Below, one piece after another: positions 17,439-64,000 of a stretch of 64,000 nucleotides of DNA. The stretch is from Escherichia coli (GTDB taxonomy: Bacteria > Pseudomonadota > Gammaproteobacteria > Enterobacterales > Enterobacteriaceae). The DNA lies in the NCBI RefSeq assembly GCF_017348835.2, contig NZ_CP071375.1; one strand, 5' to 3'. Position 1 is the stretch's first letter. Every line of letters begins with the position of its first letter. The notes under the pieces were generated by a model, which was not told where the DNA came from, did not search any database, and saw only the letters and a list, made by a program, of their open reading frames with translations. The position numbers and the translations under genes are program-made.

Positions 17439-17450
17439 AGGTCGCCGCCC
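17439..17450 (-). other. Lambda-type cosN cohesive-end sequence (GGGCGGCGACCT on minus strand) with lambda right-end-like flank
   Basis: Exact 12-mer; flanks resemble lambda left and right ends as recalled. Confidence 0.75.
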
Positions 17451-17649
17451 CGTAACCTGTCGGATCACCGGAAAGGACCCGTAAAGTGATAATGATTATC
17501 ATCTACATATCACAACGTGCGTGGAGGCCATCAAACCACGTCAAATAATCAATTATGACGCAGGTATCGTATTAATTGATCTGCATCAACTTAACGTAAA
17601 AACAACTTCAGACAATACAAATCAGCGACACTGAATACAGGGCAACCTC

Positions 17650-24493: not shown

Positions 24494-24555
24494 TTTTGGA
24501 GATTTTGGGGAGTTGAACCGCCCCGGGTTTCCTGGAGAGTGTTTTATCTGTGAAC

Positions 24556-25443: not shown

Positions 25444-25769
25444 TATTTTTTCCAGAGGCGGTCGAACTCCGCCTTCGCAAAATAAGCGGAAGCCTGGCGA
25501 AGGATATCGTTACTGCGGCGCAGTTCACGATTTTCACGTTCCAGCTCTTTCAGACGCTGACGTTCAGCGGTGGTGAGTCCACCATCACCACTCCCGGTAT
25601 CCCGCTCATGCTGGCGAACCCAGACACGCAGAGTCTCCGGCGTACAGCCAATCTTTGGGGCAATGGAACAAATTGCCGCCCACTGTGAGTCATATTCATC
25701 CTGACTTTCCAGAACCATACGAATCGCCCGCTGACGGACTTCGGGGGAAAAACGAGTATTTTTAGTCAT
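25443..25769 (-). CDS. IS3-family transposase OrfA (HTH + leucine zipper)
   Basis: 108 aa, [33 protein letters not shown]... Confidence 0.85.
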
Positions 25770-25874
25770 CCTGTTTACCTCTTTCTCAGGGAGTTTAGTC
25801 TCCAGGATTTCCGGGGCGGTTCATTAAAGATTTTTTTGTGCATGCCGATAGTGCTTTTTTAAAAGGAGAAATCT

Positions 25875-26207
25875 ATGTCTGTCACAATTCAGGGAAATAC
25901 CTCAACCGTTATTTCAAACAACTCCGCCCCGGAAGGAACATCAGAAATAGCCAAAATCACAAGACAAATTCAGGTGCTGACTGAAAAGCTTGGGAAAATC
26001 TCATCGGAAGAGGGGATGACGACACAGCAGAAAAAAGAAATGGCTGCATTGGTACAGAAGCAAATTGAAAGCCTCAGGGCTCAACTGGAGCAGTTGTTAA
26101 GGCAGCAGGCAGAGAAAAAGAATGAAGACGCGACAGTTCAGCCTGATAAAAAAGAAGAGAAAAAAGACGATACAAATACCGCTGGCACCATTGATATTTA
26201 CGTCTAA
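25875..26207 (+). CDS. flxA: FlxA-like protein (110 aa)
   Basis: Length and coiled-coil-like sequence; Qin context. Confidence 0.6.
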   Translation: MSVTIQGNTSTVISNNSAPEGTSEIAKITRQIQVLTEKLGKISSEEGMTTQQKKEMAALVQKQIESLRAQLEQLLRQQAEKKNEDATVQPDKKEEKKDDTNTAGTIDIYV

Positions 26208-26221
26208 GTGACAGCCGTATT

Positions 26222-26244
26222 GTGGCCCTCATCGGGCCACTTTT
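26222..26244 (+). terminator. Rho-independent terminator after flxA
   Basis: gtggccc tcatc gggccac followed by TTTT. Confidence 0.65.
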
Positions 26245-26643
26245 CGCCATCAGCCTTTTCTTTAAAGACATATTATCTTTGTATCATTTCTGATAGTTAA
26301 CATTACAAGATATAAGTAATGGACGCACTCCCAATTAGTCTATTTAAATCGCCACGAGTTTAACTGACAACCCATGATCAATTATGAATTGCAACTATTT
26401 CTGTAGTCACTTTTGTGGGGACAGTCCACAAAACTGCCAACTTCCGCTTCTTGCTCTTAGCGGACATTAGCATAGGCTATTTACCATAACGCCTCATTAC
26501 GCGCACCGCCCAGACTGACTCAGCGCGTTTCTGGCATATCCCCGGTAAAACAAGTAACAAACCACCCGAAAATGAACACCAGAAACGCGACTTAAGAATC
26601 TACCCTATGAATGGATATGCACTCAACCGAATCGATCTTGGTT

Positions 26644-27985
26644 TCAATCTTTTTTATCGGGATCAGGCTTCTTTTTAGGTAACTTCGGGGGCTTAACTTG
26701 CTGATGACTTTGCGTTCGGCGCGTAAGCCAGGGATGGTCAGCTTTAGGTTTAACATAGTATTTTGAGCGTAAATCAATACGGGCATTATCCACTCGTTCA
26801 TGGACACTCTTTTCATCATCCAGTGGTATAGGCTCCGGGCCATCAACATACTTTTCCCAGCCCAGCGCTTTCCCGTCATACAGAACGTTAATTTCACCGT
26901 CAAAGTTCTCGCATACAGTAACAACCGAATGCCTAAGTCGATATCCCCGGCCCTCACTGCGTACCTGAAACGCACTGCTTTTGTACTGGAAAGTGAGATT
27001 TTTAGACAGAACGCGCTTCGCCTGTAGGCTGAAGATATAACCCAGTTCCTCTTCAGAATGGTGCACATCAAGATGAGCATTATCAGTAGTACGAGGCGAC
27101 GTAGCGAACCGGTTGTTATAGGCTTCAATAAAGGTCGGCAACCATGCATTTGCTGTTTCAATATCACTGATATTCTGAAGCCGCATTTCTTTGACCAGCC
27201 TGTCCTGTAGTGTCTGATTGGCGCGCTCTACCCGCCCTTTTGCCTGCGGGCTGTTGGCATGGATTGGCTCGATGCCCAGTGTCTTTATCGCACGAGTGAA
27301 CTGGGTCAGCTCACCTTCCCGCTCTGGGTTATTTACCCTGAATATACTGTGTCTATCAGAGTAGAGAGCGAGCGGTACGCCATGATCATTAAGGTAACCC
27401 CGGAGGGTTTCCATGTAAGCCCGGGTTGTTTCAGCAGGCACAAAACGCAACGCCATCAACGCACTGGTGGCATCATCAATGAAAACGATCAGTGTACATC
27501 TGGGGCCTCGATTTTCAAACCAGTCATGAGGTGAGCCATCAATCTGGATCAGTTCACCGTAAGATGGTCGTCGCATGCGGCGTTGATATATACGGGCAAT
27601 TTTACGACGGCGTTCACGCCATACCCCCCTCTTCTATCATCCACTTTCTGAGAGTTTCAACGGATAAAGATAAACCGTGTATCTCGCGCAATTTTTCGCA
27701 CGCAAACGTAGGTCCAAAATCAGCGTAACGGCCTTTGAGGAGTGAAATTACTGTTGCTCTGAATTCAGTAGAAAAGGAATTATTAGGACGCTTTCCACGT
27801 CGGTGGGAAACCAGACCAGAAGGCCCTTCATTTCTATACCGTTGCACCAGACGTTTAACCTGCCGAATAGAAATGCCAATGCGTGCCGCAGCTTGTTCCT
27901 GAGTAATATGTCGATTAATTGACTCCTGAATAATCTGAAGTCGGTGGAGTTCCTTATGACTCATCGTAACAGTTTCTTTGGTCAT
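26644..27985 (-). pseudogene. DDE transposase (integrase-core; IS481/ISNCY-like) split by a frameshift
   Basis: N-terminal HTH part 27614-27985 and catalytic part 26644-27576 are in different frames; junction at a C6/G6 run around 27624-27629. Confidence 0.65.
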
Positions 27986-41098: not shown

Positions 41099-43524
41099 AT
41101 GATGAAAATCCATACCACAGAGGCGCTCATGAAGGCTGAAATCAGCCGTAGAAGTCTGATGAAAACCTCCGCACTTGGCAGTCTTGCGCTGGCAAGCAGT
41201 GCTTTCACTCTGCCATTTTCCCAAATGGTCCGGGCGGCAGAGGCTCCGGTAGAAGAGAAAGCGGTCTGGAGTTCCTGCACCGTTAACTGCGGGAGCCGCT
41301 GTCTGTTACGTTTGCATGTGAAAGATGACACCGTGTACTGGGTGGAGTCTGATACGACAGGTGACGACGTCTACGGTAATCATCAGGTTCGAGCGTGTTT
41401 ACGCGGTCGCTCTATCCGCCGACGGATGAATCATCCTGATAGGTTGAAATATCCCATGAAGCGCGTCGGCAAGCGCGGTGAAGGTAAATTTGAACGGATA
41501 AGTTGGAACGAAGCCCTGGATACCATCAGTGATAATCTTCGGCGGATCCTAAAAGATTACGGCAATGAGGCTGTACATGTCCTGTACGGAACAGGTGTAG
41601 ATGGCGGAAACATCACCAACTCAAACGTCCCGTACCGTCTGATGAACTCTTGCGGTGGTTTTCTCAGTCGCTATGGCAGCTACAGTACCGCACAGATCAG
41701 TGCCGCATGAGTTATATGTTCGGTGCCAATGATGGCAACAGCCCGGATGATATCGCCAATACGAAACTGGTCGTTATGTTCGGAAATAACCCGGCAGAAA
41801 CACGGATGAGCGGCGGTGGTGTCACTTACTACGTCGAGCAAGCCCGCGAACGTTCAAACGCACGCATGATCGTCATCGATCCACGTTATAACGACACAGC
41901 TGCCGGGCGTGAAGATGAATGGCTGCCCATTCGCCCTGGCACCGATGGCGCACTGGCCTGTGCGATTGCCTGGGTACTGATTACTGAAAACATGGTCGAA
42001 CAGCCATTTCTCGACAAATATTGTGTTGGTTATGATGAAAAAACGCTGCCCGCCAACGCACCACGTAACGCGCATTATAAAGCCTATATTCTGGGCGAAG
42101 GGCCTGACGGCATAGCTAAAACGCCGGAATGGGCAGCAAAAATCACCAGCATCCCGGCAGAAAAAATTATCCAGTTGGCGCGAGAGATCGGTTCAGCAAA
42201 ACCTGCTTATATTTGTCAGGGTTGGGGGCCACAACGACACTCCAACGGCGAACAAACATCCCGCGCTATTGCCATGCTTTCCGTTCTCACCGGTAACGTC
42301 GGCATAAACGGCGGCAACTCAGGCGTACGCGAAGGTAGCTGGGATCTGGGGGTAGAATGGTTTCCGATGCTCGAGAATCCTGTTAAAACGCAGATTTCCG
42401 TCTTTACATGGACAGATGCCATCGACCATGGTAAGGAAATGACCGCGACCCGTGATGGTGTTCGTGGAAAAGAAAAACTGGATGTCCCCATCAAGTTTTT
42501 ATGGTGCTACGCCAGTAACACATTGATCAATCAACATGGTGACATCAATCACACCCATGAGGTGCTTCAGGATGACAGCAAGTGCGAGATGATTGTTGGC
42601 ATTGACCACTTCATGACTGCCTCGGCTAAGTATTGCGATATCCTGTTGCCCGACCTGATGCCAACAGAGCAAGAAGACCTTATCTCTCATGAATCTGCCG
42701 GGAATATGGGCTATGTGATCCTCGCCCAACCCGCAACCTCAGCAAAATTTGAACGCAAACCCATCTACTGGATGCTGAGTGAAGTCGCCAAACGCTTAGG
42801 ACCGGACGTTTATCAAACCTTTACTGAAGGTCGCAGTCAGCATGAATGGATCAAATATCTCCATGCGAAAACGAAGGAACGTAACCCTGAGATGCCCGAC
42901 TACGAGGAGATGAAAACAACCGGGATCTTTAAGAAAAAATGCCCGGAAGAACACTACGTCGCTTTCCGCGCATTCCGTGAAGATCCACAGGCAAACCCGT
43001 TGAAAACACCTTCGGGGAAAATCGAAATTTATTCTGAACGACTGGCGAAGATTGCAGATACCTGGGAATTGAACAAAGATGAAATTATTCATCCCCTTCC
43101 TGCGTATACCCCAGGTTTTGATGGCTGGGACGATCCCCTGCGGAAAACCTATCCACTGCAGTTAACGGGCTTCCACTACAAAGCGCGTACCCACTCCAGC
43201 TACGGCAATATTGATGTGTTACAGCAGGCCTGCCCACAAGAGGTGTGGATCAACCCCATTGATGCTCAGGCTCGCGGTATCCGTCATGGCGATACCGTAC
43301 GGGTATTTAACAATAATGGAGAAATGCTGATTGCCGCAAAAGTGACTCCGCGTATTCTGCCTGGCGTTACCGCCATCGGGCAAGGTGCGTGGCTTAAAGC
43401 AGATATGTTTGGTGACCGGGTCGATCACGGCGGCAGTATCAATATTCTGACCTCTCACCGCCCTTCACCGCTGGCAAAGGGAAACCCGTCGCACAGCAAT
43501 CTTGTCCAGATCGAAAAGGTTTAA
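41099..43524 (+). pseudogene. ynfF: Second DMSO-reductase-family catalytic subunit, split by a frameshift near 41706
   Basis: ORFs 41099-41710 and 41650-43524 are N- and C-parts of one ynfE paralogue; stop TGA at 41708-41710. Confidence 0.75.
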
Positions 43525-50137: not shown

Positions 50138-50243
50138 ATTTAAAACATCTTATTTGAGATTATTAATATATTAGACAGAACAATTCGATTTTCCTAACCT
50201 ATGTATAAGCCTGATCCACAGGCATATTTAGCAAGGATTTCAA

Positions 50244-51496
50244 GTGAGCCGTACTACAACTGTTGATGGCGCTCCGGCAAGCGACACTGACAAGCAAAGC
50301 ATTTCTCAGCCAAATCAATTTATTAAACGCGGTACGCCGCAATTTATGCGCGTTACCCTGGCGCTGTTCTCTGCCGGACTGGCAACATTTGCACTTCTCT
50401 ATTGTGTACAGCCTATCCTTCCGGTGCTTTCGCAGGAGTTTGGCTTAACGCCCGCGAACAGTAGTATTTCACTGTCCATTTCCACGGCGATGTTGGCTAT
50501 TGGTTTGCTGTTTACTGGCCCCCTATCCGATGCCATTGGTCGCAAACCAGTGATGGTCACGGCGCTACTGTTGGCCTCCATTTGTACGTTACTTTCGACA
50601 ATGATGACCAGCTGGCACGGCATTTTGATTATGCGCGCCTTGATTGGGCTTTCGTTAAGTGGCGTGGCAGCTGTTGGCATGACTTATCTTAGCGAGGAAA
50701 TCCACCCCAGTTTCGTGGCCTTTTCGATGGGGTTGTATATCAGCGGCAACTCAATTGGCGGCATGAGCGGACGCTTAATTAGCGGTGTCTTCACGGACTT
50801 TTTCAACTGGCGAATTGCTCTGGCGGCAATCGGTTGTTTCGCGCTGGCCTCGGCGTTGATGTTCTGGAAAATCCTCCCGGAATCACGCCATTTTCGCCCG
50901 ACTTCGCTGCGCCCTAAGACGTTATTTATCAACTTTCGTCTGCACTGGCGTGACCGGGGATTACCGTTATTGTTCGCAGAAGGCTTTTTGCTGATGGGGT
51001 CGTTCGTCACGCTGTTTAATTACATCGGCTATCGGTTGATGCTCTCCCCCTGGCATGTCAGTCAGGCCGTGGTTGGCTTATTATCGCTGGCTTATTTGAC
51101 CGGTACATGGAGCTCACCCAAAGCCGGAACCATGACCACCCGCTATGGGCGTGGTCCAGTGATGTTGTTTTCGACGGGGTTATGCTGTTTGGTTTACTGA
51201 TGACCTTATTCAGCTCGCTGTGGCTGATCTTTGCCGGAATGTTACTCTTCTCAGCAGGATTCTTCGCAGCCCACTCAGTTGCCAGCAGCTGGATCGGCCC
51301 CCGCGCAAAACGCGCTAAAGGCCAGGCCTCCTCGCTGTATCTGTTCAGTTACTATCTGGGGTCGAGTATTGCCGGGACGCTGGGTGGTGTTTTCTGGCAT
51401 AACTATGGCTGGAACGGCGTCGGCGCATTTATTGCTCTGATGCTGGTCATTGCTCTGCTGGTCGGGACGCGTTTGCATCGTCGTCTGCACGCCTGA
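50244..51496 (+). pseudogene. ynfM: MFS transporter YnfM split by a frameshift near 51176-51179
   Basis: ORFs 50244-51200 and 51107-51496 are contiguous parts of one MFS protein in different frames; junction at a G4 run. Confidence 0.7.
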
Positions 51497-51919
51497 AAAA
51501 TAAGTCCGGACTGCGGTAAATACCCGTCCGGACTTATTGCCTACTCAAACCAACGTTAATAGCCATCCTAAAATAGACGAAGCGCCAGCCAATTCCCGCA
51601 GCGCGTCTAGCGTCATCAGGATTATAAGTACCCAAATAAACGGATTCATTTTGCTGTGTGTCATTTATTACTGATGCGCAGTTATTCTACCGCTTTGTAA
51701 GTAGTAAAATAGTTAACCCGATCAAGACTACTATTATTGGTAGCTAAATTTCCCTTAAGTCACAATACGTTATTATCAACGCTGTAATTTATTCAGCGTT
51801 TGTACATATCGTTACACGCTGAAACCAACCACTCACGGAAGTCTGCCATTCCCAGGGATATAGTTATTTCAACGGCCCCGCAGTGGGGTTAAATGAAAAA
51901 ACAAATTGAGGGTATGACA

Positions 51920-53693: not shown

Positions 53694-54045
53694 GGTTCAC
53701 CTCCAGTTCAGGTTTACGCGCTTTACGGGTACCTGATTTTATCAACACAATCCCGGCGACCAGGGTGGTTAACCCGGCAATTTTCATCAGCGATAAACTT
53801 TCGTCGAATAACAAAACGCTAAACAAGGTAATAAATAAAATACCGATACCTTCCCACAGCGCATAAGCCACACCTAAGGCTATTTTTTTAACAGCGAAAG
53901 AGAGAAATATATACGACAGAGAAATCATCACCAGCATTAAAATAAAGCCGCCATTTCCCTCACTGACGCTCGCCCATTTCATAGACAGCGTACCGGTAAT
54001 TTCTGTAGCAATAGCCAGACCTAATAAAATCCAATAAATATACAT
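53680..54045 (-). CDS. mdtJ: SMR-family spermidine exporter subunit MdtJ
   Basis: 121 aa, 4-TM; overlaps the mdtI start. Confidence 0.85.
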
Positions 54046-54456
54046 TGTCCTTCTCCTGCAAGAGAATTATTTTAATTTTCGCTTAATTCAGCGAAACCAA
54101 AGTAAAGTGGTCAAGCCCCGCGCTTAGCGCAAGCTTTGGCAGAAGAAAGGACTAAAGCGCGTTGCGCCAGTGCTGCTCACCTACGAGCAAGATAGTGGAT
54201 GAGGTACGAAGATGGGTAAATGTAGAAAATAACGTCCTGAACAAATTGTCCATAATATTACAATTATCCGCAGTGTTGCTTCTCGTCATCGCGGATGATA
54301 ATTGTCCTCGGTAGTTGAACACGCCTGATTTGTATCATAGCTTAAGAATTAACTCAAAATATTTTCACTTCTTTACCTGAGCGGTTTGATTTTCGTTATG
54401 ATGACGGAGCGAAAAAGACATTATTATTAGCAAAGGAAGAAAAAACGGGGACAAGC

Positions 54457-54621
54457 ATGGCAAAGCCGATCATCACGCTCAATGGCCTAAAAATCGTCAT
54501 TATGTTGGGAATGCTGGTCATTATTCTCTGCGGTATCCGTTTTGCCGCCGAGATCATCGTGCCGTTTATTCTCGCATTATTTATTGCTGTTATATATAAC
54601 TTATTTCACTTAACGCATTGA
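54457..54621 (+). pseudogene. tqsA: tqsA (AI-2 exporter) 5' fragment, truncated after codon 46 by an inserted element
   Basis: [46 protein letters not shown], then 8 unrelated codons and a stop; phage-like DNA follows. Confidence 0.8.
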
Positions 54622-55045
54622 TTTAATTAAATAATTTGCACCACAAAAAGTGCCAAAAATCGCAAAATGACTACACCAGTGACTACACCGTTCGGTGCAC
54701 CGTATGAAACAACGTGGAACAAATAGACACAAGAAATATACAGGCGGATCATCTTTCCAGGGGGAAGCGCACCAATTCATGAGGGGCGTTAATGTCGATA
54801 TGGGGATCCCCACCTACCGGAATTTTTTTCCGGTTAAACGTTAATCAGGCTGGTGGGCTTTACCTGTTCGGTAGGTGTTATGATTATCGTAATACCTTTC
54901 CCCCAATGGGGTAAAAGCATCAACCGTAACGAAAGTCGTTATGGTTGCCACCGATACCCCAAATTTGGGTATCACGAGTAAGCCCCAAAATCTGGGTGTT
55001 ACTCTTACTACCCAAACTACGGGTAGTTTCCGTAGTTTCATGGTC

Positions 55046-55065
55046 GAGTTGCAGATCTGCAACTC
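55046..55065. repeat. 20 bp perfect palindrome (gagttgcagatctgcaactc) within a repeat-rich stretch
   Basis: Read directly; neighbouring CCCAAA(N)GGGT-type repeats at 54957-55030. Confidence 0.6.
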
Positions 55066-55319
55066 CCCCATTAACCACAGGCGAATTTCCGCCTTCGGTC
55101 ATTCCTTAATCATCTGCGTAATCATAATGATTATTCAGCAAGCGCAATTTTGCGCTTTGCTTAAAGTTCAGCGAGTTACCGCGCCGACTTCCTCAAATTG
55201 AGGTTTCCGAAAATATCAGCGGGTTAGCGATTAAGCTGACCATTAATTAAACTGCGAAAATGTCGTAGTTGTGAGGGGTGTAGCCAACCCATTTTTGGGC
55301 CGTCGGGAATATCAACCAG

Positions 55320-55601
55320 TTACCGCCGCAACCGCTCCGGCTTCTTCCAGTGGTACGTTATTTTCTCCTTCTCCCGATACATCTCCACGCGGCGACGGTA
55401 GGCCAGCAACTCAAGAACTCTGGTTCGTATGTTGCGCATATCCACGGCATTAAGTTCTATACCATCACGGCGCATCACCTCCGCAACAACACGCGCATAA
55501 TTTTCAGCGGTCACGCTGTCCGGCTGCATGGCCTGTTCGTCAACCTGCTGGCTGATTCCGGCAACGCGGCGGATTAATCCCAGTATTTCGGCTTCTATCA
55601 T
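55320..55601 (-). CDS. Hypothetical protein (93 aa)
   Basis: ORF only. Confidence 0.3.
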   Translation of the reverse strand: MIEAEILGLIRRVAGISQQVDEQAMQPDSVTAENYARVVAEVMRRDGIELNAVDMRNIRTRVLELLAYRRRVEMYREKEKITYHWKKPERLRR

Positions 55602-55665
55602 TGTGCCCCCATCGTTCTGAAAGTCTGGTGTCGTCGGGTCCTTCCTGGAATTATGGCCCGTTACG

Positions 55666-55677
55666 GGGCGGCGACCT
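55666..55677 (+). other. Lambda-type cosN sequence GGGCGGCGACCT (plus orientation) with lambda-like cosB-type flank
   Basis: Exact 12-mer; downstream flank resembles the lambda left end as recalled (TTTATGAAAATTTT..., AAAAGAAACGACA). Confidence 0.7.
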
Positions 55678-55856
55678 CGCGGTTTTTATCTGTTTATGAA
55701 AATTTTTCTGGAAAAAGCATGTCGGTACTTCTCGAACATAACTATTTGTTTTTAAATAGATACACAATAAAAAGAAACGACACGGTAATCATCTAAAATG
55801 GCGATTTATGACGCTTTCATGTCGTTTCTCAGTTTTGTTCAATAATTGCGCGTCTG

Positions 55857-56369
55857 TTACTCGCCTTTCTTCTGTAGCAACTTTTCCGGTACGTTTCCGG
55901 TTGTTTCTTTCAAGTAATCAGCCAGTATCTGTGGGAGGTTGTCGGCAACTCTGGCACTGGCATTACAGGCTTTAACCACTTCCCTTTTAAGCCTATCCAG
56001 CATGGCGTGGGTAATCTGTGGGAAGCTCCTTTGCATAGTAAGCGGGAGGCTGTCCATGATTGATGAAATCTGACTCGCCAGCTTTGAAAGCGCGTACAGG
56101 CAAAACTCAGTATCAATCACGTCACCGCGATCGCGCTCGTTTTTAAGTTCCTGCGCCTCCGCCTGTGCTGTCAGTAATCTGATCCTGACTCGTAAGAGTT
56201 CATCATCATCAATATCGCCTTTGTCGTTTGTAAGCTGGCTAATTGCATTGTTAACCCTATTGTCTATCACGCTGGCAACATCGTAAAACGCCTCACGGCC
56301 TTTACGTTCAACGGGAGTCACTCCCCACTTGTCGAACGCTGTCGCACTTACACGGCAGCTTTTCGCCAT
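55857..56369 (-). CDS. Small-terminase (Nu1)-like protein with diverged N-terminal DNA-recognition region
   Basis: 170 aa; central/C-terminal region closely resembles NohA at 16716-17261 (LTAQAEAQELKNERD...); N-terminal ~45 aa diverged and shortened. Confidence 0.7.
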   Translation of the reverse strand: MAKSCRVSATAFDKWGVTPVERKGREAFYDVASVIDNRVNNAISQLTNDKGDIDDDELLRVRIRLLTAQAEAQELKNERDRGDVIDTEFCLYALSKLASQISSIMDSLPLTMQRSFPQITHAMLDRLKREVVKACNASARVADNLPQILADYLKETTGNVPEKLLQKKGE

Positions 56370-56399
56370 GTTTTTTTGTTCATCAGGTGCGATTTCATT

Positions 56400-56437
56400 A
56401 ATACACCAACTTAATTACTGCTTCAGGTTGGTGTATT
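56400..56437. repeat. 11 bp inverted repeat (AATACACCAAC N16 GTTGGTGTATT) between cos and the terS-like start
   Basis: Read directly; lies in the terS-like leader. Confidence 0.55.
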
Positions 56438-56531
56438 GTTTGCATCTTTCCCTTTTCATTCATAAAGATAGAGCAAACAACAAAACCACCACCACCCCCC
56501 TGAAAAGGCTCATAAATAGCGAAAAACCGCG

Positions 56532-56543
56532 AGGTCGCCGCCC
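56532..56543 (-). other. Second lambda-type cosN sequence (minus orientation), about 165 bp upstream of the terS-like gene
   Basis: Exact 12-mer AGGTCGCCGCCC on the plus strand; inverted relative to 55666-55677. Confidence 0.7.
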
Positions 56544-56604
56544 CGTAACGGGTCCATATGCCGGAAAGGTCCCGTAAAAAAAGCCGGATTTCTCCGGCCT
56601 TGTC

Positions 56605-57018
56605 TCAGATGGTTTTCAGTATGCGATCGATGTCGCCGTCATCGCCCTGGTTTCTGCCATCGTATGCCATGCCAGCTGATACGGCTTGCGGGCTGTGCAT
56701 GTCCATAAAGTTTTCAAAGGCTGCGGTAAGCTCTGGTGCAACCTTTGGGCGCTCCTGCTCTATGGTCATGTTCAGGATTTCACGAGCATTATCGACGCTA
56801 ATACATGGCACGTTTGCCATTGCACGTAACAGCGGCTGATAGTCTTTATGCTCATGAAGCGCCATAATCGCATCAGCGCGCGGCTTGTCCTGCTCTTCCA
56901 GTTTGTTTAGTTGATATACGGCCTCATAGGTTGATAAACCTCTGTCAGCCATTGCCCGCGCTTCGGCTTTAAATTTACTCGCCAGCGGTAGCGTCATGAT
57001 GCTTTCATTCGTTGCCAT
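56605..57018 (-). CDS. Hypothetical head-module protein (137 aa)
   Basis: ORF between the gpD-like and terS-like genes; no recognisable motif. Confidence 0.3.
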   Translation of the reverse strand: MATNESIMTLPLASKFKAEARAMADRGLSTYEAVYQLNKLEEQDKPRADAIMALHEHKDYQPLLRAMANVPCISVDNAREILNMTIEQERPKVAPELTAAFENFMDMHSPQAVSAGMAYDGRNQGDDGDIDRILKTI

Positions 57019-57030
57019 CGTTCCCCCTGC

Positions 57031-57430
57031 TTATCGGGCCAGCGGCTGAACGGATACGCCGGAACCCGCAAAGGCGGCGCATTTTTTCGCATCGGTGTCG
57101 ACGCTCTCAGGCCAGTTAACGGCGGCAATATTGAATATCCCCGTCTTGTAACACTGTGCTGATTTCTGCTTTGACGTGTCCACAGGATACGAAGTCAGAT
57201 AAACAGCCTTGCCAGATTCCTGACCATCCCACGGCTTAAACTCGCCATTGTCCGCCAGCATCAGCGGGGTAAATTCCTGAATAACGCCAGCATCAGCGGG
57301 GTAAATTCCTGAATAACGCCAGCATCAGCGGGGTAAATTCCTGAATAACGCCAGCATCAGCGGCAAAATGTACCAGCGTCGTGGCGACCTGCTGACTGCC
57401 TGCAAATAACTCAATGTATGGAGTGTCCAT
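57031..57430 (-). pseudogene. Lambda gpD-like head decoration gene disrupted by a 64 bp tandem duplication
   Basis: 5' part (MDTPYIELFAG...TPLML) and 3' part (ADNGEFKPWDG...YKTGIF...AFAG) resemble lambda gpD; frame is restored by removing two 32 bp repeat copies. Confidence 0.65.
57254..57363. repeat. Tandem repeat: 32 bp unit (gccagcatcagcggggtaaattcctgaataac) x3 plus a 14 bp partial copy
   Basis: Perfect copies at 57254-57285, 57286-57317, 57318-57349; partial at 57350-57363. Confidence 0.9.
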
Positions 57431-57441
57431 AGAATCCCCCG

Positions 57442-58497
57442 TTAAGCAATTTTGACAGTAACAAATTTGCGAATATCTGCCGGAACCGGCTGCGGTGCGC
57501 TGTGCGTCTGCACGTACTCAATCGCCGGATCTCCGTCCTCAATCCAGTTTTTCGGGTAGTACATGTTTTGCGTTGCCCCCGTTCTTACTGCGTCCTGATC
57601 CATAATCGCACCATAGGCCACCAGCCCTTTATTGTTGGTGTTGCCCAGGACAAGCAAATCAGGCTCAAGGAAATATTTTTCTGTGCCGTCGCTGTCAGTG
57701 TATTTGCCGGAATAGACGATAAGGGCCAGATCACCAAGATAGCCTTTAAAGCTCACCACTTCGCCCAGGTTTTTACATGCCAGCTCTGCGGCGGATTCTG
57801 AACCACGGGAGAGATCGTACAGTTCACGGAATTTTTTAAAGCTGCGTAACATGCGCCATACATCAACGCCCATAATCATGACGTTGGCGGGGCAACCTGC
57901 CTGATCTGCGTATAGTTCAATGTCATATATTGGGTCGTGTATGTCTTTATCCTGCTCAGACCATTTTTTACCGTCGGCCTGCTCTATGATGTTTTTTTCC
58001 GGTATCTTCCAGTCGATTTCATAGCGTTCTATGCCTTCGCCCTCAATGATGTTTTTTCCGGTCGTTACCGCATTCACCGCCAGCCATTCAACGTGTGCCT
58101 TAATGGCGTTTATCTGGCGGCGCATGTTGCCAGTAATCAGGCGCATACGGCGGTAGGTAGGATCGTTAAGCTGTGCCGGATCTTCTCCAGCCATGCGCAT
58201 TATTGTTTTTAATGGATCGATTTCGTGTTTTGGCTTCATGTAGCCAGGGCGGATAATGCTGGTTTCGTACCCTTTATCGCGCTGAACCTGGCTGCCAACC
58301 ATAGGCGAACAAAACGCCGACATAGTGACTTCTTCAATATCCAGGTTATCTAACATGATGTCCTGCGTGTTGAATGTCGCCACGTTCGGGAAAAACAGCG
58401 CGGTAAACAGCGGACTAAATTTAAATTCCGCAATATCCTCGCGATTCAGGTACGCGAAAAGCTGGTGTGTGTTAAGTGCTATTGCTTTGACTGCCAT
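57442..58497 (-). CDS. Major capsid protein, lambda gpE homologue
   Basis: 351 aa; shared blocks KFxPLF..LFF, PGYxKPKHE, DPxYRR, SxKGxxGDxAIVVYSG, YPKNW..GDPA, SAP with lambda gpE as recalled. Confidence 0.8.
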   Translation of the reverse strand: MAVKAIALNTHQLFAYLNREDIAEFKFSPLFTALFFPNVATFNTQDIMLDNLDIEEVTMSAFCSPMVGSQVQRDKGYETSIIRPGYMKPKHEIDPLKTIMRMAGEDPAQLNDPTYRRMRLITGNMRRQINAIKAHVEWLAVNAVTTGKNIIEGEGIERYEIDWKIPEKNIIEQADGKKWSEQDKDIHDPIYDIELYADQAGCPANVMIMGVDVWRMLRSFKKFRELYDLSRGSESAAELACKNLGEVVSFKGYLGDLALIVYSGKYTDSDGTEKYFLEPDLLVLGNTNNKGLVAYGAIMDQDAVRTGATQNMYYPKNWIEDGDPAIEYVQTHSAPQPVPADIRKFVTVKIA

Positions 58498-58736
58498 TAT
58501 TCGCCCCCATAATTTTTGTGCATCCCAAGCGCCGCAAGTAAATAAGATCGCACAAGTGAACCTATCGACGGCTCCGGCGTCATCAGCGGATCCAGTCCAG
58601 CCGCAACGCCAGCTTCATAGTTTTTTTTGTGGCGCTGCTTGAGCACCTCCACGATTTCGGGGCTTATGTACACCGAAACACCGCCTTTTTTCTCTTCAGC
58701 CATAGTAAGAAATTCCTCTTCGACTAAAAAAATCAT
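58497..58736 (-). CDS. Hypothetical protein
   Basis: ORF only; start may be an internal Met (MAEEKK). Confidence 0.3.
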   Translation of the reverse strand: MIFLVEEEFLTMAEEKKGGVSVYISPEIVEVLKQRHKKNYEAGVAAGLDPLMTPEPSIGSLVRSYLLAALGMHKNYGGE

Positions 58737-58954
58737 AACTGGATGTTTATCCAGTCCTGATTATAATCAGAATTGCATTTTATGCAATGATATTGAGTTA
58801 TGTTGCAAATTATGAAATGATTATCCCGATCACGAACGCCAGTGCATCCAAAAACCTCATATGCAAAAGCCCGATAAGAACCCTCTGACCTTATCGGGCT
58901 TTTTTTGGGCGCAAAAAAGCCGGATTGCTCCGGCTATGTGTGCTGTGTGCTGGC

Positions 58955-59179
58955 TCAGTCTCTGATCTCTTTCAGAAATTCTATCAATGCATCTATCTGT
59001 TCAGGATTTACCGCCAGCATTTCACCGGATAGAGCACATCTCACAAAACCATGCTGATCCTTTTCAATCAGTGCGCCCGTCTCCAGGAATGCGCGGTAAT
59101 CATTGATGCTCATCGTCTCCATGTTGTCAGCATGGTATTTATCACGCTGTTTTAATATCTCATCAAATTTCATCGGCAT
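58955..59179 (-). CDS. Hypothetical protein (74 aa)
   Basis: ORF only. Confidence 0.3.
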   Translation of the reverse strand: MPMKFDEILKQRDKYHADNMETMSINDYRAFLETGALIEKDQHGFVRCALSGEMLAVNPEQIDALIEFLKEIRD

Positions 59180-59305
59180 TGTTTTTTTCCTCTGTTGTGT
59201 CTGTTTGTTTCAGATAGTAACTATGCCTGACCGTGACGAAAACCCGGTAATGCGCCATACCGTTTCAACTGGTGCAAAAAAAGCCGTATTTCTCCGGCTG
59301 TTTGA

Positions 59306-59578
59306 TTAGCTGTCCTGGTAATTGCGCCATATTTCATCACCAGCACCATCTATACCCATTTCGGCATAAGTGCGATCGACTGCCTTTTTCAGGTCTCCGA
59401 AATTATCCGGCGGCTCCGGTGCCCTCTGTGCCTTCCTTGAACATTCCAGCCGTCGCATCGTGATGTGATGCCGTTCCTTGTCTGTCTCCACCAGCTGCAT
59501 GACTTCACCCCATCGCGCCGCCGCCCTCCGGTAAAAGCCTTTCGCCTCCAGTTCCTCCGCTATGCGGTCATGTACCAT
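59306..59578 (-). CDS. PerC-family transcriptional activator-like protein (Pch-like)
   Basis: MVHDRIAEELEAKGFYRRAAARWGEVM... resembles the PerC/Pch N-terminal signature from memory; start at the internal Met of the ORF. Confidence 0.6.
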   Translation of the reverse strand: MVHDRIAEELEAKGFYRRAAARWGEVMQLVETDKERHHITMRRLECSRKAQRAPEPPDNFGDLKKAVDRTYAEMGIDGAGDEIWRNYQDS

Positions 59579-59588
59579 CGTCACCCCC

Positions 59589-59999
59589 TCAGAACGAAAT
59601 ATCATCACCGTAAGGGTCATCGCCTCCCGCTGGTGGCTGATTACCCTGTGTGCCTGTGGTTTTGCGTCTGTTCCCGCCAGGAAGTGCCGCACGGGCACTG
59701 ATTACGCTGTCTGCAATAACCTGATAACCCTGCCGCGTTTCCCCATTCTGTCCGGTCCACTGGCTGACCTGCATCGTGCCGGATACGCTGGCAACGTCGC
59801 CTTTTTGATGTTTAGCCAGGAAGTCGGCCTGCTTACCAAATGCGATGACCGATAGCCATAACGTCGCCTGCCCATCCTGCGCCTGACTACATGGCAGCGA
59901 TACCGCCATACGCGCCAGCGTCATCGGTGTACCCTTGCTGGTCTGTTTTACCTGCTGGTCGTCCACCAGCCGCCCGTAAGCCGCTATCTGTGCTGTCAT
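59589..59999 (-). CDS. SSB-like single-stranded DNA-binding protein
   Basis: 136 aa with Gly/Pro-rich tail ending in the acidic DDISF (compare SSB DDIPF). Confidence 0.55.
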   Translation of the reverse strand: MTAQIAAYGRLVDDQQVKQTSKGTPMTLARMAVSLPCSQAQDGQATLWLSVIAFGKQADFLAKHQKGDVASVSGTMQVSQWTGQNGETRQGYQVIADSVISARAALPGGNRRKTTGTQGNQPPAGGDDPYGDDISF

Positions 60000-60304
60000 G
60001 CCGTCTGCTCTCCGGTTTTAACGTTGATGGTTGTTACCTGTTCCGCTTCGGCAATCTCCCGTTCTGTCAACGTGGCAAAGTTTGCCGCTGCTGTGGTCAT
60101 GAATGCGCTTATCAGTTCGGGATGCTCCTTCGCGTATCCTTCCCCCGCGTGGCGGTCTATCGTTCTGATTGCCACCTTTAAAGCCAGTTCAGCCATATCT
60201 AACGCCTTATATTTCGGCTCTGTTCTGTCTCTGCGTTTTTGGGTCATTTCTCGCAACCTCTCACTTTTTCGCCTCACTTTTTCAAGCGTCTCACTTCGTC
60301 GCAA
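59996..60304 (-). CDS. Hypothetical protein
   Basis: ORF overlaps the SSB-like start by 4 bp. Confidence 0.3.
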   Translation of the reverse strand: MRRSETLEKVRRKSERLREMTQKRRDRTEPKYKALDMAELALKVAIRTIDRHAGEGYAKEHPELISAFMTTAAANFATLTEREIAEAEQVTTINVKTGEQTA

Positions 60305-60447
60305 TTGGGATTTTTGGTTTTTCTATGTGTGTGTTTCATAAGTATTTTTTTACCCCTCACTTTTGAGGATGTATACAGGTAAAAAAGTGAGGGAGAGCAG
60401 GCTAATTTTGGCCCTCTTTCTATCCACCTCGCTTTTGCTCCTCACTT

Positions 60448-61854
60448 TTATAGCGGCGCTACATCATCCCCATCGATACGAATAACCCCATCTTTTTCCA
60501 GCTTGTACAGCCAGCGCCGGAAGTTTTTCATTTCATACCCCAGTTTTTTCATGTCATCACGTAACAGCGGGATCGTGCACTTGTCGCCGTTCTGTGTGCG
60601 TGAACGGATGCACCCCCATAGCGCGGTATGGTTTTCCGTCTTGTTCCCTGCCTCCTCGATGCGCTCCAGTTCTGCCGGTTCGCGTGGGATGTCAATCACC
60701 ACCATGGACACGATTTCTTCACCCTCAGGATCCGTAAATACCTCCACGCTCTTAAGGTCGTAGGCACTTTCTTTTGGCTCCTCCGCGTCCTTCATCTTCG
60801 TACATGCTGCAACCAGCGCCGTAGCCTCTGAATGTTCCCGACTGATTCGGAACTCAGCATCAAGCGCCGCACGGAATGCACTGGAACCCCGCGCCCCTTT
60901 CGTCTCATCCTTGCCGGAATGATGCACAACCAGAACCGTGGCCCCCGTGGCCTGCTTTATCGCGTCACACCCCTGGATAAACGCCCCCATGTCGCGGGAG
61001 TCATTTTCATCATGACCACCAAAGCAACGGGCCAGCGTGTCAATGACAATCATCCGCACCCTTTCGCCCGTTCTGTCCTGCACTAATCCGGCGGTCCTGA
61101 TAACCTGTTCCACATAGTCCGGCGATGCGGGGAATACTGGCGAATTGACGATACACAAATCAGTAACCGCCTTACCGTGGGTTATTTCCCATGCCTTAAC
61201 GCGGCGCTTTACGCCCATACTTCCTTCACCAGCAACATAGATAACCGCGCCTTTACACACCCTGCGGCCTCCCCATTTCATTCCAGTGGCAACATGACAC
61301 GCCCACGAAATGGCAAGGAACGACTTATAGGAACCGCTCGCCCCGTAGGTGCTGCATAATGCTTCCGCCGGAATAAGCCCCTTAATCACGTAGCTTTGCT
61401 GCGCGTCGAACCCTTCCGATCCCCATGAAATCGGTAGCGTGATTTTTTGTTTTCCTCCGTTCATGATCAGGCTTTCCCCTCTCTCCCATGTCTCCCGTAG
61501 CCGTGGAAGCTGGTCGGTCCATTTCTCCAGTAATTCGAAGTTTTCAGAAAGCAGCCGCGCTTCATGGACTCCGGCGATCGCCAGTTTTGTCGCTATGGTT
61601 AACAGCTGCGCTTCGTCAATATTTCCGGCGCGTATCACCGTTACCCTGTATCGCCCCTCATCAACAATCTGCAGGTTGTCCAGTTCGCTTAACTGATAAC
61701 GCCCCAGGTAAACGGGAGGCGTGGAGTCTCCCGCCTTTTTGGCCTGTGCAATGATGTAGTGCTCTGCAAATGAGTGCGCATCATTCCCCGCGAAAATAAT
61801 TGCTTCGGTGTGTTTGTCTTTCGGTAATAGTTTTACGTTCGGTGCCAGTTTCAT
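60448..61854 (-). CDS. RecA-fold AAA ATPase (RepA/DnaB-like replication protein)
   Basis: 468 aa; Walker A GASGSYKS; Walker-B-like MIVIDTL; C-terminal wHTH-like region. Confidence 0.7.
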   Translation of the reverse strand: MKLAPNVKLLPKDKHTEAIIFAGNDAHSFAEHYIIAQAKKAGDSTPPVYLGRYQLSELDNLQIVDEGRYRVTVIRAGNIDEAQLLTIATKLAIAGVHEARLLSENFELLEKWTDQLPRLRETWERGESLIMNGGKQKITLPISWGSEGFDAQQSYVIKGLIPAEALCSTYGASGSYKSFLAISWACHVATGMKWGGRRVCKGAVIYVAGEGSMGVKRRVKAWEITHGKAVTDLCIVNSPVFPASPDYVEQVIRTAGLVQDRTGERVRMIVIDTLARCFGGHDENDSRDMGAFIQGCDAIKQATGATVLVVHHSGKDETKGARGSSAFRAALDAEFRISREHSEATALVAACTKMKDAEEPKESAYDLKSVEVFTDPEGEEIVSMVVIDIPREPAELERIEEAGNKTENHTALWGCIRSRTQNGDKCTIPLLRDDMKKLGYEMKNFRRWLYKLEKDGVIRIDGDDVAPL

Positions 61855-62150
61855 TTTTTACCCCTGAATACGTTAAGCATCTTTTTTATTTCCTGAATAT
61901 TGGCGCGTGCTTTCTCCCTGCTGGTTGGAACGTTACGCGGTACAGCCTGCACCAGAGAAAAATCACGGTCGAACTGATAAACAGGCATCACGCAATCATA
62001 TTCGTAGCCTTCACGACGGTAGGTTACGCGCCGTTCCTCCACGCCCTTAATCATTACCGTGCCGCCGTACTGGTCGCGGTAAATATCACCGCGCATGAAT
62101 TTAGTGCGAGTTTTGCCACTGGCAGTTAAGCCAGAATATTTAAGTTTCAT
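61851..62150 (-). CDS. Hypothetical protein (99 aa), translationally coupled to the ATPase gene
   Basis: Stop overlaps the ATPase start (ATGA). Confidence 0.3.
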   Translation of the reverse strand: MKLKYSGLTASGKTRTKFMRGDIYRDQYGGTVMIKGVEERRVTYRREGYEYDCVMPVYQFDRDFSLVQAVPRNVPTSREKARANIQEIKKMLNVFRGKK

Positions 62151-62155
62151 TATTT

Positions 62156-62389
62156 TTATTCTCCGGTGTGCTGTTCTTTATATCTGTCGTGCAATAGATC
62201 TATTTCTTGCAGTTCCATTATTACATGCTCAAGAATCGTTATTAATGCCGTGGCAATTCTTGATTTTTGTTTGTCGCGTTCATTGTCGCCAAGTGTTTCA
62301 AGCCATATGCGCAATATTTCCAGCATGTTTTCACTGTGAGAAAGTGCAAGAAATGCGCGGTCTATTGTTTCGAGGTAAATATCACGCAT
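62156..62389 (-). CDS. Hypothetical small helical protein (77 aa)
   Basis: ORF; starts MRDI. Confidence 0.3.
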   Translation of the reverse strand: MRDIYLETIDRAFLALSHSENMLEILRIWLETLGDNERDKQKSRIATALITILEHVIMELQEIDLLHDRYKEQHTGE

Positions 62390-62390
62390 A

Positions 62391-62612
62391 TTAATCCCCG
62401 TCCGTTGTTTTTCTTAAAATAACTTCTGTCACGAAATCAGCATAGTTAGCGGCAATATCAAGAATATTTAGCCCTGTATCTCTGTGCTCATCAGTGCAAA
62501 GAAAGAAAAAAGCCACCCGCATAATTTCAGATATTGACGAAAGCGCATCAGCCGCATCATCAGGAACGCCGGAAAATTCTTGTTTCAGGGAATTAAAACG
62601 ATCATCACGCAT
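62391..62612 (-). CDS. Hypothetical small protein (73 aa from MRDD)
   Basis: ORF; possible paralogue of neighbours. Confidence 0.3.
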   Translation of the reverse strand: MRDDRFNSLKQEFSGVPDDAADALSSISEIMRVAFFFLCTDEHRDTGLNILDIAANYADFVTEVILRKTTDGD

Positions 62613-62877
62613 AACCCCCCCCATTTTCATAATCTGCAACAAGAATATTTTTAGCGTCATTCAGCGACCGCGTGGCGGTGTATCGGATACATTCCAGGGC
62701 GAACAATGTGTATTCCTCCCGTTCTTCCTTTTGTGCAAGCTCTGCCGTGCATTCAATATCAATAAGCGCGTGCATCAGCGTAGTGAGTGCGGCTGCGTCC
62801 GGACGGATGTTATTGCACATGGTGTACCCCTCCGCATTTTTTTTCGTTAGAAATAAGCGTTCTTCTTTCCTGTTCAT
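62605..62877 (-). CDS. Hypothetical small protein
   Basis: ORF; start uncertain. Confidence 0.25.
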   Translation of the reverse strand: MNRKEERLFLTKKNAEGYTMCNNIRPDAAALTTLMHALIDIECTAELAQKEEREEYTLFALECIRYTATRSLNDAKNILVADYENGGGYA

Positions 62878-63043
62878 CGCTCAGGAATACGCAGACCTCA
62901 CCGCTAAGGCGTTTAAGTAAGCCGATGATTGCCCCTGATTCGCTGTCGGTCATCATGCCAGGGTAATCCTCTGCCAGTGCGCAAATAACTTCGATTTGGT
63001 GGGCGCGTTCTGCTGCCTGTTGTAGTGTGATTTCCTGGCTCAT
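62810..63043 (-). CDS. Hypothetical small protein (77 aa from MSQEIT), first gene of the leftward operon
   Basis: ORF. Confidence 0.3.
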   Translation of the reverse strand: MSQEITLQQAAERAHQIEVICALAEDYPGMMTDSESGAIIGLLKRLSGEVCVFLSDEQERRTLISNEKKCGGVHHVQ

Positions 63044-63327
63044 AAGCCTACCCCCTGGCGAATACGGGCGGCGAATACAGCAACACAACCTGACGGGCAA
63101 CGGTTACGCGCTTCGCGTTCCGTCCAGGCGGTTACGTGGATTATTTGAGATTCTCCGGCACTCAGTGCCAGAAAACGCCACACAAAGGCCGTTTGTGTGT
63201 GTACAAGGTGTGGTATATGATTTACAGCAACCATAACGGCTCCTAGTTTACGTTGTTGGTTAGAAGCCCTGCGAGTGGTAACGACACTTGCGGGGCTTTG
63301 TCTTTTCATCGATTACCTTGATAAAGG

Positions 63328-63407
63328 TGTCAGCCACTATATTAGTAACGGGTGTCAGCCACGTCAATAGTGTTTTTCCGTTTTCTTGTGTGTATACTGT
63401 CAGCCAC
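63328..63407 (+). promoter_or_regulatory. Three direct repeats of TGTCAGCCAC with a TATACT -10-like hexamer: candidate operator/promoter
   Basis: Repeats at 63328-63337, 63353-63362 and 63398-63407; TATACT at 63392-63397. Confidence 0.55.
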
Positions 63408-63428
63408 CTAATAACGAGGAAATCAGAT

Positions 63429-63608
63429 ATGGCAACAAAAGCAGTTAATGCAAAATCCAAAAAGCTTGAGGCTCGAGTACCACACGCAATAGCTGATGCT
63501 GTAGAAAATTTAAAGGAAGATGGCGAAAGTACAGGGCAATTTATCGTTTCGGCACTTGAAGGCGAGATCAAACGCCGCCAGCGCCGCAAGGCCAAAGAAT
63601 CAGAATAA
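63429..63608 (+). CDS. Small basic DNA-binding-like protein (possible ribbon-helix-helix regulator)
   Basis: 59 aa from MATKAVNAKSKKLEARVPHAIADAVENLKEDGE... Confidence 0.45.
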   Translation: MATKAVNAKSKKLEARVPHAIADAVENLKEDGESTGQFIVSALEGEIKRRQRRKAKESE

Positions 63609-63650
63609 TCACTATCAGCGCCGTGGTGTGAGGTATTACGGCGCATTGCT

Positions 63651-63839
63651 ATGCAGGACAACACAATGACCGATAAAGAATTGACCAAAACATTATCACC
63701 GGCACGGAAAAGACGGCGCAGAAAGATAGAACATGAATCAGAAAGATTCGCGCCATGTGCTTTTGCCCTTGAGCAATTCCTTAAAGAGTACAGGGAAAAG
63801 CGCTCATTGCAGGTATGGCAACGAACTGAACCAGACTGA
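63651..63839 (+). CDS. Hypothetical small basic protein
   Basis: ORF with RRRRK stretch. Confidence 0.3.
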   Translation: MQDNTMTDKELTKTLSPARKRRRRKIEHESERFAPCAFALEQFLKEYREKRSLQVWQRTEPD

Positions 63840-63935
63840 TTGCATTGCCCACCAGCCTGATAGCGGCTATCATCCCCGTGCTTATGTTTGGGATCACACA
63901 CACAAACGGCGCAGCGGGTTATCTGTTCAGAAAGG

Positions 63936-63962
63936 CGGCTCCATTTCGGGGCCGCTTTTTTT
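63936..63962 (+). terminator. Rho-independent terminator
   Basis: cggctcc atttc ggggccg stem followed by T7. Confidence 0.55.
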
Positions 63963-64000
63963 ATGCCTGAAAAACCCCAATTTTGTGGTTTTCCAGTCTC

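Follow-up and report, generated by a model that had tools for sequence, protein, structure and literature searches.

A tqsA-borne element of Escherichia coli is very probably a classical cos-type phage-inducible chromosomal island of the EcCICFT073/EcCI042 family

Introduction

The autoinducer 2 (AI-2) exporter gene tqsA is interrupted in the Escherichia coli contig NZ_CP071375.1 (assembly GCF_017348835.2) by phage-like DNA, which raises the question of what kind of element carries capsid, decoration and small-terminase homologues in so short a segment. The stretch analysed in this study (the window) comprises 64,000 nucleotides and ends inside the element. A preliminary description, made from the letters alone, had taken the segment for a helper-dependent satellite resembling a phage-inducible chromosomal island (PICI) and not for a compact lambdoid phage. 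That view was borne out by the size of the whole element (11.5 kb), by its int, alpA and attachment (att) sites and by its collinearity with EcCICFT073. With high confidence, the segment contains most of a classical Gram-negative PICI of the cos type, 11.5 kb long, which belongs to the EcCICFT073/EcCI042 family and uses tqsA as its att site.

The preliminary description had left it possible that such an architecture was new. It is already known: EcCICFT073 with its c1499 and c1500 genes and two cos sites, together with the PICIs in tqsA, was published in 2018 (PMC6092414). The present copy is a routine mosaic of cassettes already described and is partly decayed, with a frameshifted decoration gene and a small-terminase gene whose start may be lost. 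In enterobacteria, PICIs are drivers of horizontal gene transfer and of phage interference, and this picture is unchanged by the copy described here.

Boundaries and identity of the element

The window from 54000 to 64000 was 100% identical to E. coli PE164 (NZ_CP114128.1) in BLAST searches, and the part of the element beyond the window was read from this identical copy (stretch L001 of NZ_CP114128.1). Alignment with K-12 showed that tqsA has the same sequence through ...ATTGCTGTTAT, ending at window position 54593, and diverges thereafter (54593/54594), close to the position of about 54592 at which the gene had been said to leave its normal course after 46 codons. PGAP labeled the truncated gene 'pheromone autoinducer 2 transporter, missing C-terminus'. 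In PE164, the 3' part of tqsA resumes 11.5 kb further on, after a second copy of the 9-bp core TGCTGTTAT, and the whole element lies between these duplicated cores. The in-frame stops TGA TAA stand immediately upstream of the 3' fragment, so that tqsA is split and no fusion open reading frame (ORF) is restored; the inactivation of tqsA that had been proposed is thus a real disruption at the sequence level. The tqsA junction was present in 245 of 5,426 complete E. coli genomes (about 4.5%). In this share of genomes a PICI splits the AI-2 exporter gene, and AI-2 signalling phenotypes could be affected.

Read from the integrase end, the gene order was int, alpA, small ORFs, RepA helicase, replication origin, single-stranded DNA-binding protein (SSB), PerC, a 74-aa ORF, a 68-aa ORF, capsid, decoration, a 137-aa ORF, cos, small terminase (terS), an inverted cos and a 93-aa ORF (Table 1). 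Apart from the rep and rpp/terS cassettes, the element matched EcCICFT073 in gene order, with nucleotide identities of 84-93%, and its integrase (Int) and AlpA were 91% and 95% identical, respectively, to those of EcCICFT073. The downstream flank, which had been named as the place where a full prophage might come to light, holds alpA, the integrase gene, the second att copy and the 3' part of tqsA, and no portal, terminase or tail genes.

The criteria for a PICI were taken from Fillol-Salom 2018 (PMC6092414), and all those that a sequence can address describe this element. It has a specific att site with a short direct repeat, TGCTGTTAT, at both junctions; it falls within the small size class (about 10-15 kb), int and alpA lie together at its right end, and its genes run in one direction, one small plus-strand gene excepted; and it has its own initiator (RepA/AAA_25) with a two-set iteron origin immediately 3' of it. 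Moreover, it has capsid and decoration homologues as in EcCICFT073, it lacks portal, large terminase (TerL), tail and lysis genes, and its cos sites are by sequence of the helper type, with two exact lambda cosN cores flanking terS. No Rpp protein was found, since the product encoded in the rpp slot aligns with lambda Nu1 along its entire length and not with RppA.

Neither the 9.4 kb inside the window nor the full 11.5-kb element yielded a gene for portal, protease, TerL, tail or lysis functions, as judged by PHROG profiles on ORFs of at least 74 aa, PGAP on the full element and Pfam on the TerS-like protein, the 137-aa protein and the helicase only. The absence of portal, large terminase, protease and tail genes noted earlier for the visible part therefore extends to the complete element.

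Table 1. Features of the tqsA element, in window coordinates; features beyond position 64,000 are placed by the PE164 copy.
Feature	Position	Strand	Basis or remark
Truncated tqsA	54457..54621	+	46 native codons, 8 foreign codons, stop; ORF list and K-12 alignment
Left att core TGCTGTTAT	54585..54593	.	Three-way junction alignment
Arm-type repeat block (GTGACTACACC x2)	54664..54739	.	Repeated beside int at the other end
Conserved 93-aa PICI ORF, last gene before att	55320..55601	-	phrog_1561, E 1e-54
Second cos (cosN core), inverted, downstream of terS	55659..55682	+	24-nt core CGTTACGGGGCGGCGACCTCGCGG
Nu1-family small terminase gene (terS)	55857..56398	-	phrog_57; Pfam Phage_Nu1; PGAP 'frameshifted'
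cos (cosN core) directly upstream of terS	56527..56550	-	Lambda cos->Nu1 arrangement
137-aa ORF, Nu3-like scaffold-domain homologue (from sequence)	56605..57018	-	phrog_1999; phrog_53; S49 peptidase match
gpD-like decoration gene, pseudogene here	57031..57430	-	phrog_49; frameshifted
gpE-family major capsid protein, 351 aa, c1499 orthologue	57442..58497	-	phrog_29; BLASTP; PDB
68-aa conserved ORF abutting capsid gene start	58497..58703	-	phrog_3255, E 2e-54; PGAP CDS
74-aa ORF, conserved in PICIs, no assigned function	58955..59179	-	phrog_1957, E 2e-42
PerC-family regulator	59306..59578	-	phrog_994; phrog_10396; PGAP
SSB	59589..59999	-	phrog_44, E 1e-36; PGAP
Replication origin, predicted	60259..60447	.	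AAGTGAG(R) iterons, two sets around AT-rich stretch, directly 3' of rep
Replication initiator/helicase, 468 aa, RepA family, AAA_25	60448..61854	-	Pfam; phrog_2850; PGAP
Early small ORFs: DUF4222, four small hypotheticals, Icd-like protein	61851..63234	-	PGAP; PHROGs; collinear with EcCICFT073
YlcI/YnfO-family small gene	63429..63608	+	PGAP; phrog_949
Partial pseudogene leaving the window	63604..64000	-	PE164 annotation
alpA, outside the window	64109-64297 (window-equivalent)		PE164 annotation; AlpA-type helix-turn-helix protein
int (tyrosine integrase), outside the window	64672-65901 (window-equivalent; L001 22673-23902)		PE164 annotation
Right att core TGCTGTTAT, outside the window	66077-66085 (window-equivalent; L001 24078-24086)		Three-way junction alignment

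cos sites and the small terminase

The exact lambda cosN 12-mer GGGCGGCGACCT occurred on both sides of terS, at 56532-56543 on the minus strand and, inverted, at 55666-55677 on the plus strand. The core common to both sites extends to 24 nt (CGTTACGGGGCGGCGACCTCGCGG), for which 100 shuffles gave 0 chance matches. A 65-nt inverted repeat links the second cos region with 56510-56574, and by position this second cos parallels one of the two sites, cos1 and cos2, of EcCICFT073. The cos that had been noticed next to the small terminase was thus recovered as an exact cosN upstream of terS, with an inverted copy in addition.

The terS product matched phrog_57 (E 3e-48) and Pfam Phage_Nu1 (E 3e-22), and its intact 180-aa orthologue was 36% identical to lambda Nu1 over the full length (E 1e-33), with the C-terminal half best conserved. 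No BLASTP similarity was detected between TerS and RppA, and a PDB sequence search with TerS matched neither RppC nor the Nu1 DNA-binding domain and returned noise only. This type of terS was found in 756 of 5,426 complete E. coli genomes (~14%).

In the present copy, a 1-nt homopolymer deletion (A8->A7; A-run at 56370-56376) removes the annotated start of terS. An in-frame ATG directly after the A-run leaves a 170-aa ORF (55857-56369) whose first codon corresponds to codon 11 in the 180-aa orthologue. The PE164 annotation likewise marks several neighbouring core genes, namely ynfF, ynfM, yneK and rrrQ, as frameshifted (L001 1-1525 and 8245-9497; L008 915-2029; window ~42000-43500 and ~50200-51500), so that the homopolymer difference in terS may be a sequencing or assembly error. 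Downstream of the second cos, the 93-aa ORF occupies the same position in EcCICFT073, EcCI042 and CB9615, with ratios of nonsynonymous to synonymous substitution rates (dN/dS) of 0.08-0.55.

Head-gene cassette

The 351-aa ORF matched the major head protein profile phrog_29 (E 1e-106), was 44% identical to lambda gpE (E 3e-94), and matched PDB 3BQW, a 'putative capsid protein of prophage', with E 2e-227. It shared 94% amino acid identity with c1499 of EcCICFT073 at a dN/dS of about 0.1, a value which indicates that the head-gene cassette is under purifying selection. Furthermore, the 68-aa ORF that abuts it was 100% identical in amino acid sequence to its counterparts in CB9615 and HY220605 although their synonymous divergence (dS) was 0.09-0.19. 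The PICI capsid gene was present in 597 of 5,426 complete E. coli genomes (~11%).

The decoration gene was judged by alignment to the intact CB9615 gene and to CFT073 c1500. Its 76-aa C-terminal ORF matched phrog_49 (E 3e-21), and the intact orthologue was 36% identical to lambda gpD; its frame is broken here by two additional 32-nt units (+64 nt; repeats at 57253-57363, tandem family D1), and PGAP also called the gene 'frameshifted'. The gpE, gpD and Nu1-like assignments of the preliminary description, on which its reading had been staked, accordingly passed profile and pairwise searches, with the qualification that the gpD-like gene, homologous as claimed, is a pseudogene in this copy.

The 137-aa ORF matched phrog_1999 (E 4e-65) and also the C-terminal end of the head maturation protease profile phrog_53 (E 2e-10, positions 495-567 of 583). 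It was 39% identical (E 3e-11) to residues 416-493 of an S49 prohead protease/scaffold protein of a CFT073 lambdoid prophage, and in a related phage protein the corresponding stretch aligned to residues 364-403 of lambda gpC, inside the Nu3 region. Direct BLASTP against lambda gpC and gpFI gave nothing significant, Pfam, PDB and NCBIfam gave no match for the protein, and a single-sequence AlphaFold2 model had a predicted local distance difference test score (pLDDT) of 43.8 and was not used. The homology is thus visible only through the PHROG profile and the intermediate lambdoid protease/scaffold protein, and on this basis the ORF is regarded, from sequence, as homologous to the Nu3-like domain at the C-terminus of lambdoid prohead protease/scaffold proteins. 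The earlier statement that no scaffold gene was present has to be amended to that extent.

Among 50,697 phage records, the island major capsid protein (MCP) was at most 48% identical to any phage MCP. Identity of TerS to phage small terminases reached no more than 44%, with N15 the closest, and the 137-aa protein had one weak phage match. These low identities point to the head cassette as an old lineage specific to these PICIs and not one recently taken from a phage.

Comparison with known satellites

The closest parallels in location are EcCI042 and EcCIK1516, which Table S1 of Fillol-Salom 2018 (PMC6092414) places in tqsA with the att core ATAACAGCA, which reads as TGCTGTTAT on the opposite strand. 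Both belong to the same ~11-kb size class and have the RepA-type allele and the PerC, SSB, capsid, decoration and 137-aa genes. In EcCI042, the junction was 97.5% identical and the genes between int and the 93-aa ORF follow one another in the same order; however, a 435-nt rpp-type gene lies between its cos sites in place of the 543-nt Nu1-family terS found here, and its decoration gene is intact.

EcCICFT073, the characterised prototype, shares the capsid gene (its product c1499 being near-identical to the PDB 3BQW sequence) and the decoration, 137-aa, 68-aa and 93-aa genes, as well as unidirectional transcription and two inverted lambda-type cos sites flanking a packaging-specificity gene. 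In contrast, it is located at ycfD(roxA)-phoQ with the core GGACATATTT, has a primase-type Pri-Rep of 584 aa where the present element has a RepA/AAA_25 protein of 468 aa, and encodes RppA (144 aa) where a full-length Nu1-type TerS stands here. EcCIRM12579, listed in the same Table S1, and the corresponding island of O55:H7-O157:H7 strains have a Nu1-type terS with 97-98% nucleotide identity over 170 codons, the RepA allele and the head cassette (about 90% identity over 6.3 kb); they differ in their site, ycfD-phoQ, and neither terS nor the decoration gene is damaged in them.

Capsid-forming PICIs (cf-PICIs; prototype EcCIEDL933, Alqurainy et al., bioRxiv 10.1101/2022.09.08.507074) have the int-alpA-rep backbone and a satellite-encoded capsid protein in common with the element. 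However, they also encode portal, protease, head-tail connectors, HNH, TerS and TerL and make their own small capsids, and of these genes only TerS is found here. Assignment of the element to the cf-PICIs was rejected, since its head and packaging genes are limited to those for the MCP, TerS and a protein with a Nu3-like domain, plus a decoration pseudogene. Staphylococcus aureus pathogenicity islands (SaPIs) and other pac-type Gram-positive PICIs redirect packaging by a satellite TerS that pairs with helper TerL, as may also be the case for the present element. Packaging is by the headful mechanism there, in contrast to cos here, and their TerS belongs to a family unrelated to Nu1.

Proposed life cycle and role of the head genes

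Helper-dependent induction, packaging and transfer, as well as interference with the helper, have been demonstrated for EcCICFT073 alone, with lambda, phi80 and the CFT073 prophage as helpers, and AlpA activation and cos packaging by lambda and phi80 have been described for PICIs (PMC6092414). By analogy with this prototype, a lambdoid helper entering lytic growth would switch on alpA, and AlpA would activate the unidirectional gene set. The island would then excise and replicate at its iteron origin by means of the RepA-type helicase and SSB. Its concatemers would be cut at the lambda-type cosN and packaged by helper TerL into particles built by the helper.

The redirecting step may differ from that of the prototype. 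Rpp proteins are 144-153 aa long and consist of a winged helix-turn-helix and a dimerisation helix, with no TerL-binding region, and Rpp of EcCICFT073 heterodimerises with the helper TerS and retargets it to the island cosB (Fillol-Salom 2019, PMC6739421). The present TerS, standing in the Rpp slot, would instead bind its own cosB beside the upstream cos, and its conserved C-terminal half might recruit a gpA-like helper TerL, by which packaging would be redirected to the island. Within the collection searched, no functional study of Nu1-type TerS in E. coli PICIs and no later work on c1499 was found.

The preliminary description had further supposed that the element brings its own capsid shell, and this part is not supported. 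In EcCICFT073, where c1499 is a capsid homologue, c1500 is a homologue of head decoration genes and two cos sites are present, the packaged DNA is of phage size and the capsids are full-size; deletion of c1499 or c1500 left the interference of this island unrelieved; and the transfer experiments were done with c1499::cat islands (PMC6092414). Among 29 reference Gram-negative PICIs, 21 have a major capsid gene, and it is dispensable for transfer (PMC10111431). Transfer of the prototype by lambda or phi80 does not require the capsid, decoration and Nu3-like cassette. The decoration gene is moreover broken here.

The published negative results cover one island of the Rpp type and two laboratory helpers, which leaves room for partial head-building with natural helpers. 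It is thus conceivable, although improbable, that the cassette and the Nu1-type TerS make such islands partial head-builders with some natural lambdoid helpers, through a co-assembled or replaced shell, chimeric or size-altered capsids and a cos-specificity subunit of their own. If this were true, these islands would represent an evolutionary intermediate between classical PICIs and cf-PICIs.

Alternative explanations

Several points weigh against the element being a working classical PICI. Helper dependence, excision and transfer are ascribed to this copy by analogy with its relatives, and the mechanism given for the Nu1-type TerS is our own proposal. The decoration frameshift together with the terS 5' deletion may make the copy poorly mobilisable or not mobilisable at all. 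Moreover, an intact lambdoid helper was not identified in the window, and the nearby Qin-like prophage is a remnant.

The first alternative follows from this damage, namely that the copy is a dead PICI which has lost packaging and is decaying in tqsA. The 64-nt tandem expansion in the gpD-like gene and the A8->A7 change at the terS 5' end, with PGAP flagging both genes as frameshifted, agree with this explanation, as does the finding that the exact sequence is shared by PE164 alone. However, EcCICFT073 transfers with its capsid gene disrupted, so that loss of the decoration gene may not matter; the in-frame ATG keeps 170 of the 180 TerS codons; the homopolymer change could be a sequencing error, as ynfF, ynfM and yneK are also frameshifted; and int, alpA, rep, the origin and both cos sites look intact. 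A dead copy is accordingly considered doubtful, though it deserves to be kept in mind.

A second alternative is that the element is a semi-autonomous head-former between a classical PICI and a cf-PICI, whose capsid, decoration and Nu3-like proteins would, given a suitable natural helper, form its own shells, perhaps small ones, to be completed by the portal, protease, TerL and tail of a helper. The capsid, decoration and scaffold-domain homologues and the 68-aa ORF form one terminator-bounded module, this module is under purifying selection and belongs to an old lineage restricted to these PICIs, and PmCI172, which has a capsid homologue, makes small capsids (PMC6092414). Nevertheless, lambda-induced EcCICFT073 packages phage-sized DNA only, deletion of c1499 or c1500 does not relieve its interference, c1499::cat islands transfer, and the decoration gene is broken in this copy, which makes a head-former of this kind rather unlikely.

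A lambdoid prophage remnant with its portal, TerL, tail and lysis genes deleted, for which the lambda-family capsid, decoration and Nu1 homologues and the lambda-type cosN might speak, is very improbable in view of the clean boundaries with a 9-bp att duplication, the same 11-kb architecture at two att sites in hundreds of genomes, an order (E-D-Nu3-like-cos-terS) unlike that of lambda, head proteins at most 48% identical to any phage and an AlpA, RepA and iteron replicon of its own. A complete lambdoid prophage (about 40-60 kb) was rejected because the element spans 11.5 kb, has no portal, TerL, tail, lysis or CI-Cro genes and has a gene order unlike lambda. A P4-like satellite was also rejected, since sid, psu, delta and the alpha primase-helicase were unmatched in PHROGs and PGAP and the cos is of the lambda and not the P2 type; homology between PICIs and P4 is confined to distant similarity in Int, AlpA and Pri-Rep (PMC6092414).

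Replication, regulation and the integrase end

The replication ATPase, SSB and PerC-like regulator named in the preliminary description were confirmed by profile searches. The 468-aa helicase matched Pfam AAA_25 (E 2e-42) and phrog_2850 (E 2e-190) and was annotated by PGAP as 'helicase RepA family'; its allele is of the EcCI042/CB9615 type, unlike the primase of EcCICFT073. Of the 8 matches to AAGTGAG(R) in the whole window, 6 lie within 190 bp immediately downstream of the helicase gene; the motif also forms repeat family D4. This layout, with two iteron sets around an AT-rich region immediately 3' of the initiator gene, is the one published for PICI origins (PMC6092414). Table S1 of that study also gives 'perC' as an accessory gene in this PICI family.

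A terminator-like hairpin, AAAAAAGCCGGA...TCCGGC, was found in three copies (85-100% alike) at 56577-56603, 58913-58939 and 59277-59303, that is, at module boundaries 3' of the 137-aa gene, the 74-aa ORF and perC. Nearly all genes do lie on the minus strand, as had been described; however, the single operon that had been proposed is interrupted by these hairpins, and the gene at 63429-63608 is on the plus strand. Hairpins inside the supposed operon indicate that several transcription units are probably present. The repetition suggests either a shared device for regulated termination or a repeated mobile hairpin.

Among ten element proteins searched against NCBIfam, Int gave weak integrase-family matches below the cutoff and the other nine gave none. 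Differences between Int and its EcCICFT073 counterpart (L006 3931-5160) were concentrated mostly within the N-terminal 60 residues. The two integrases are 91% identical, yet they serve different sites and cores (TGCTGTTAT in tqsA, GGACATATTT at ycfD-phoQ), and this pair would be suited to mapping site specificity. The arm-type block forms a direct-repeat family (D2) of 76 nt with 76% identity, at L001 12665-12740 and 23924-23999, and the GTGACTACACC repeats are probably arm-binding sites of the integrase.

Between the left att core and the first conserved ORF, ~700 bp (54594-55320) held several palindromes and short inverted repeats and no convincing gene; the part at 54950-55183 differs among related islands. 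An Rfam scan of 54000-64000 returned nothing that reached the gathering score. This stretch could be attP arm sequence or encode a small RNA.

Surrounding DNA

A Qin-like cryptic lambdoid prophage remnant lies at ~12600-33300 of the window, 37 kb upstream of the island. It contains nohA (a Nu1 homologue), a truncated large-terminase gene abutting tfaQ, pinQ, cold-shock genes, insertion sequence (IS) elements and an integrase gene. Its cos at 17380-17500 on the minus strand has the exact cosN 12-mer and the 24-nt core with 1 mismatch, in a lambda-like form. The remnant thus has the cosN core in common with the PICI, and it looks too degraded for a helper role.

Also upstream of the island, BLAST comparison with PE164 showed an inverted copy of an IS3-family element at 24513-27106, an IS-associated rearrangement. 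About 1.3 kb (25824-27106) had no match in the PE164 stretch compared, and the rest was 99.97-99.99% identical.

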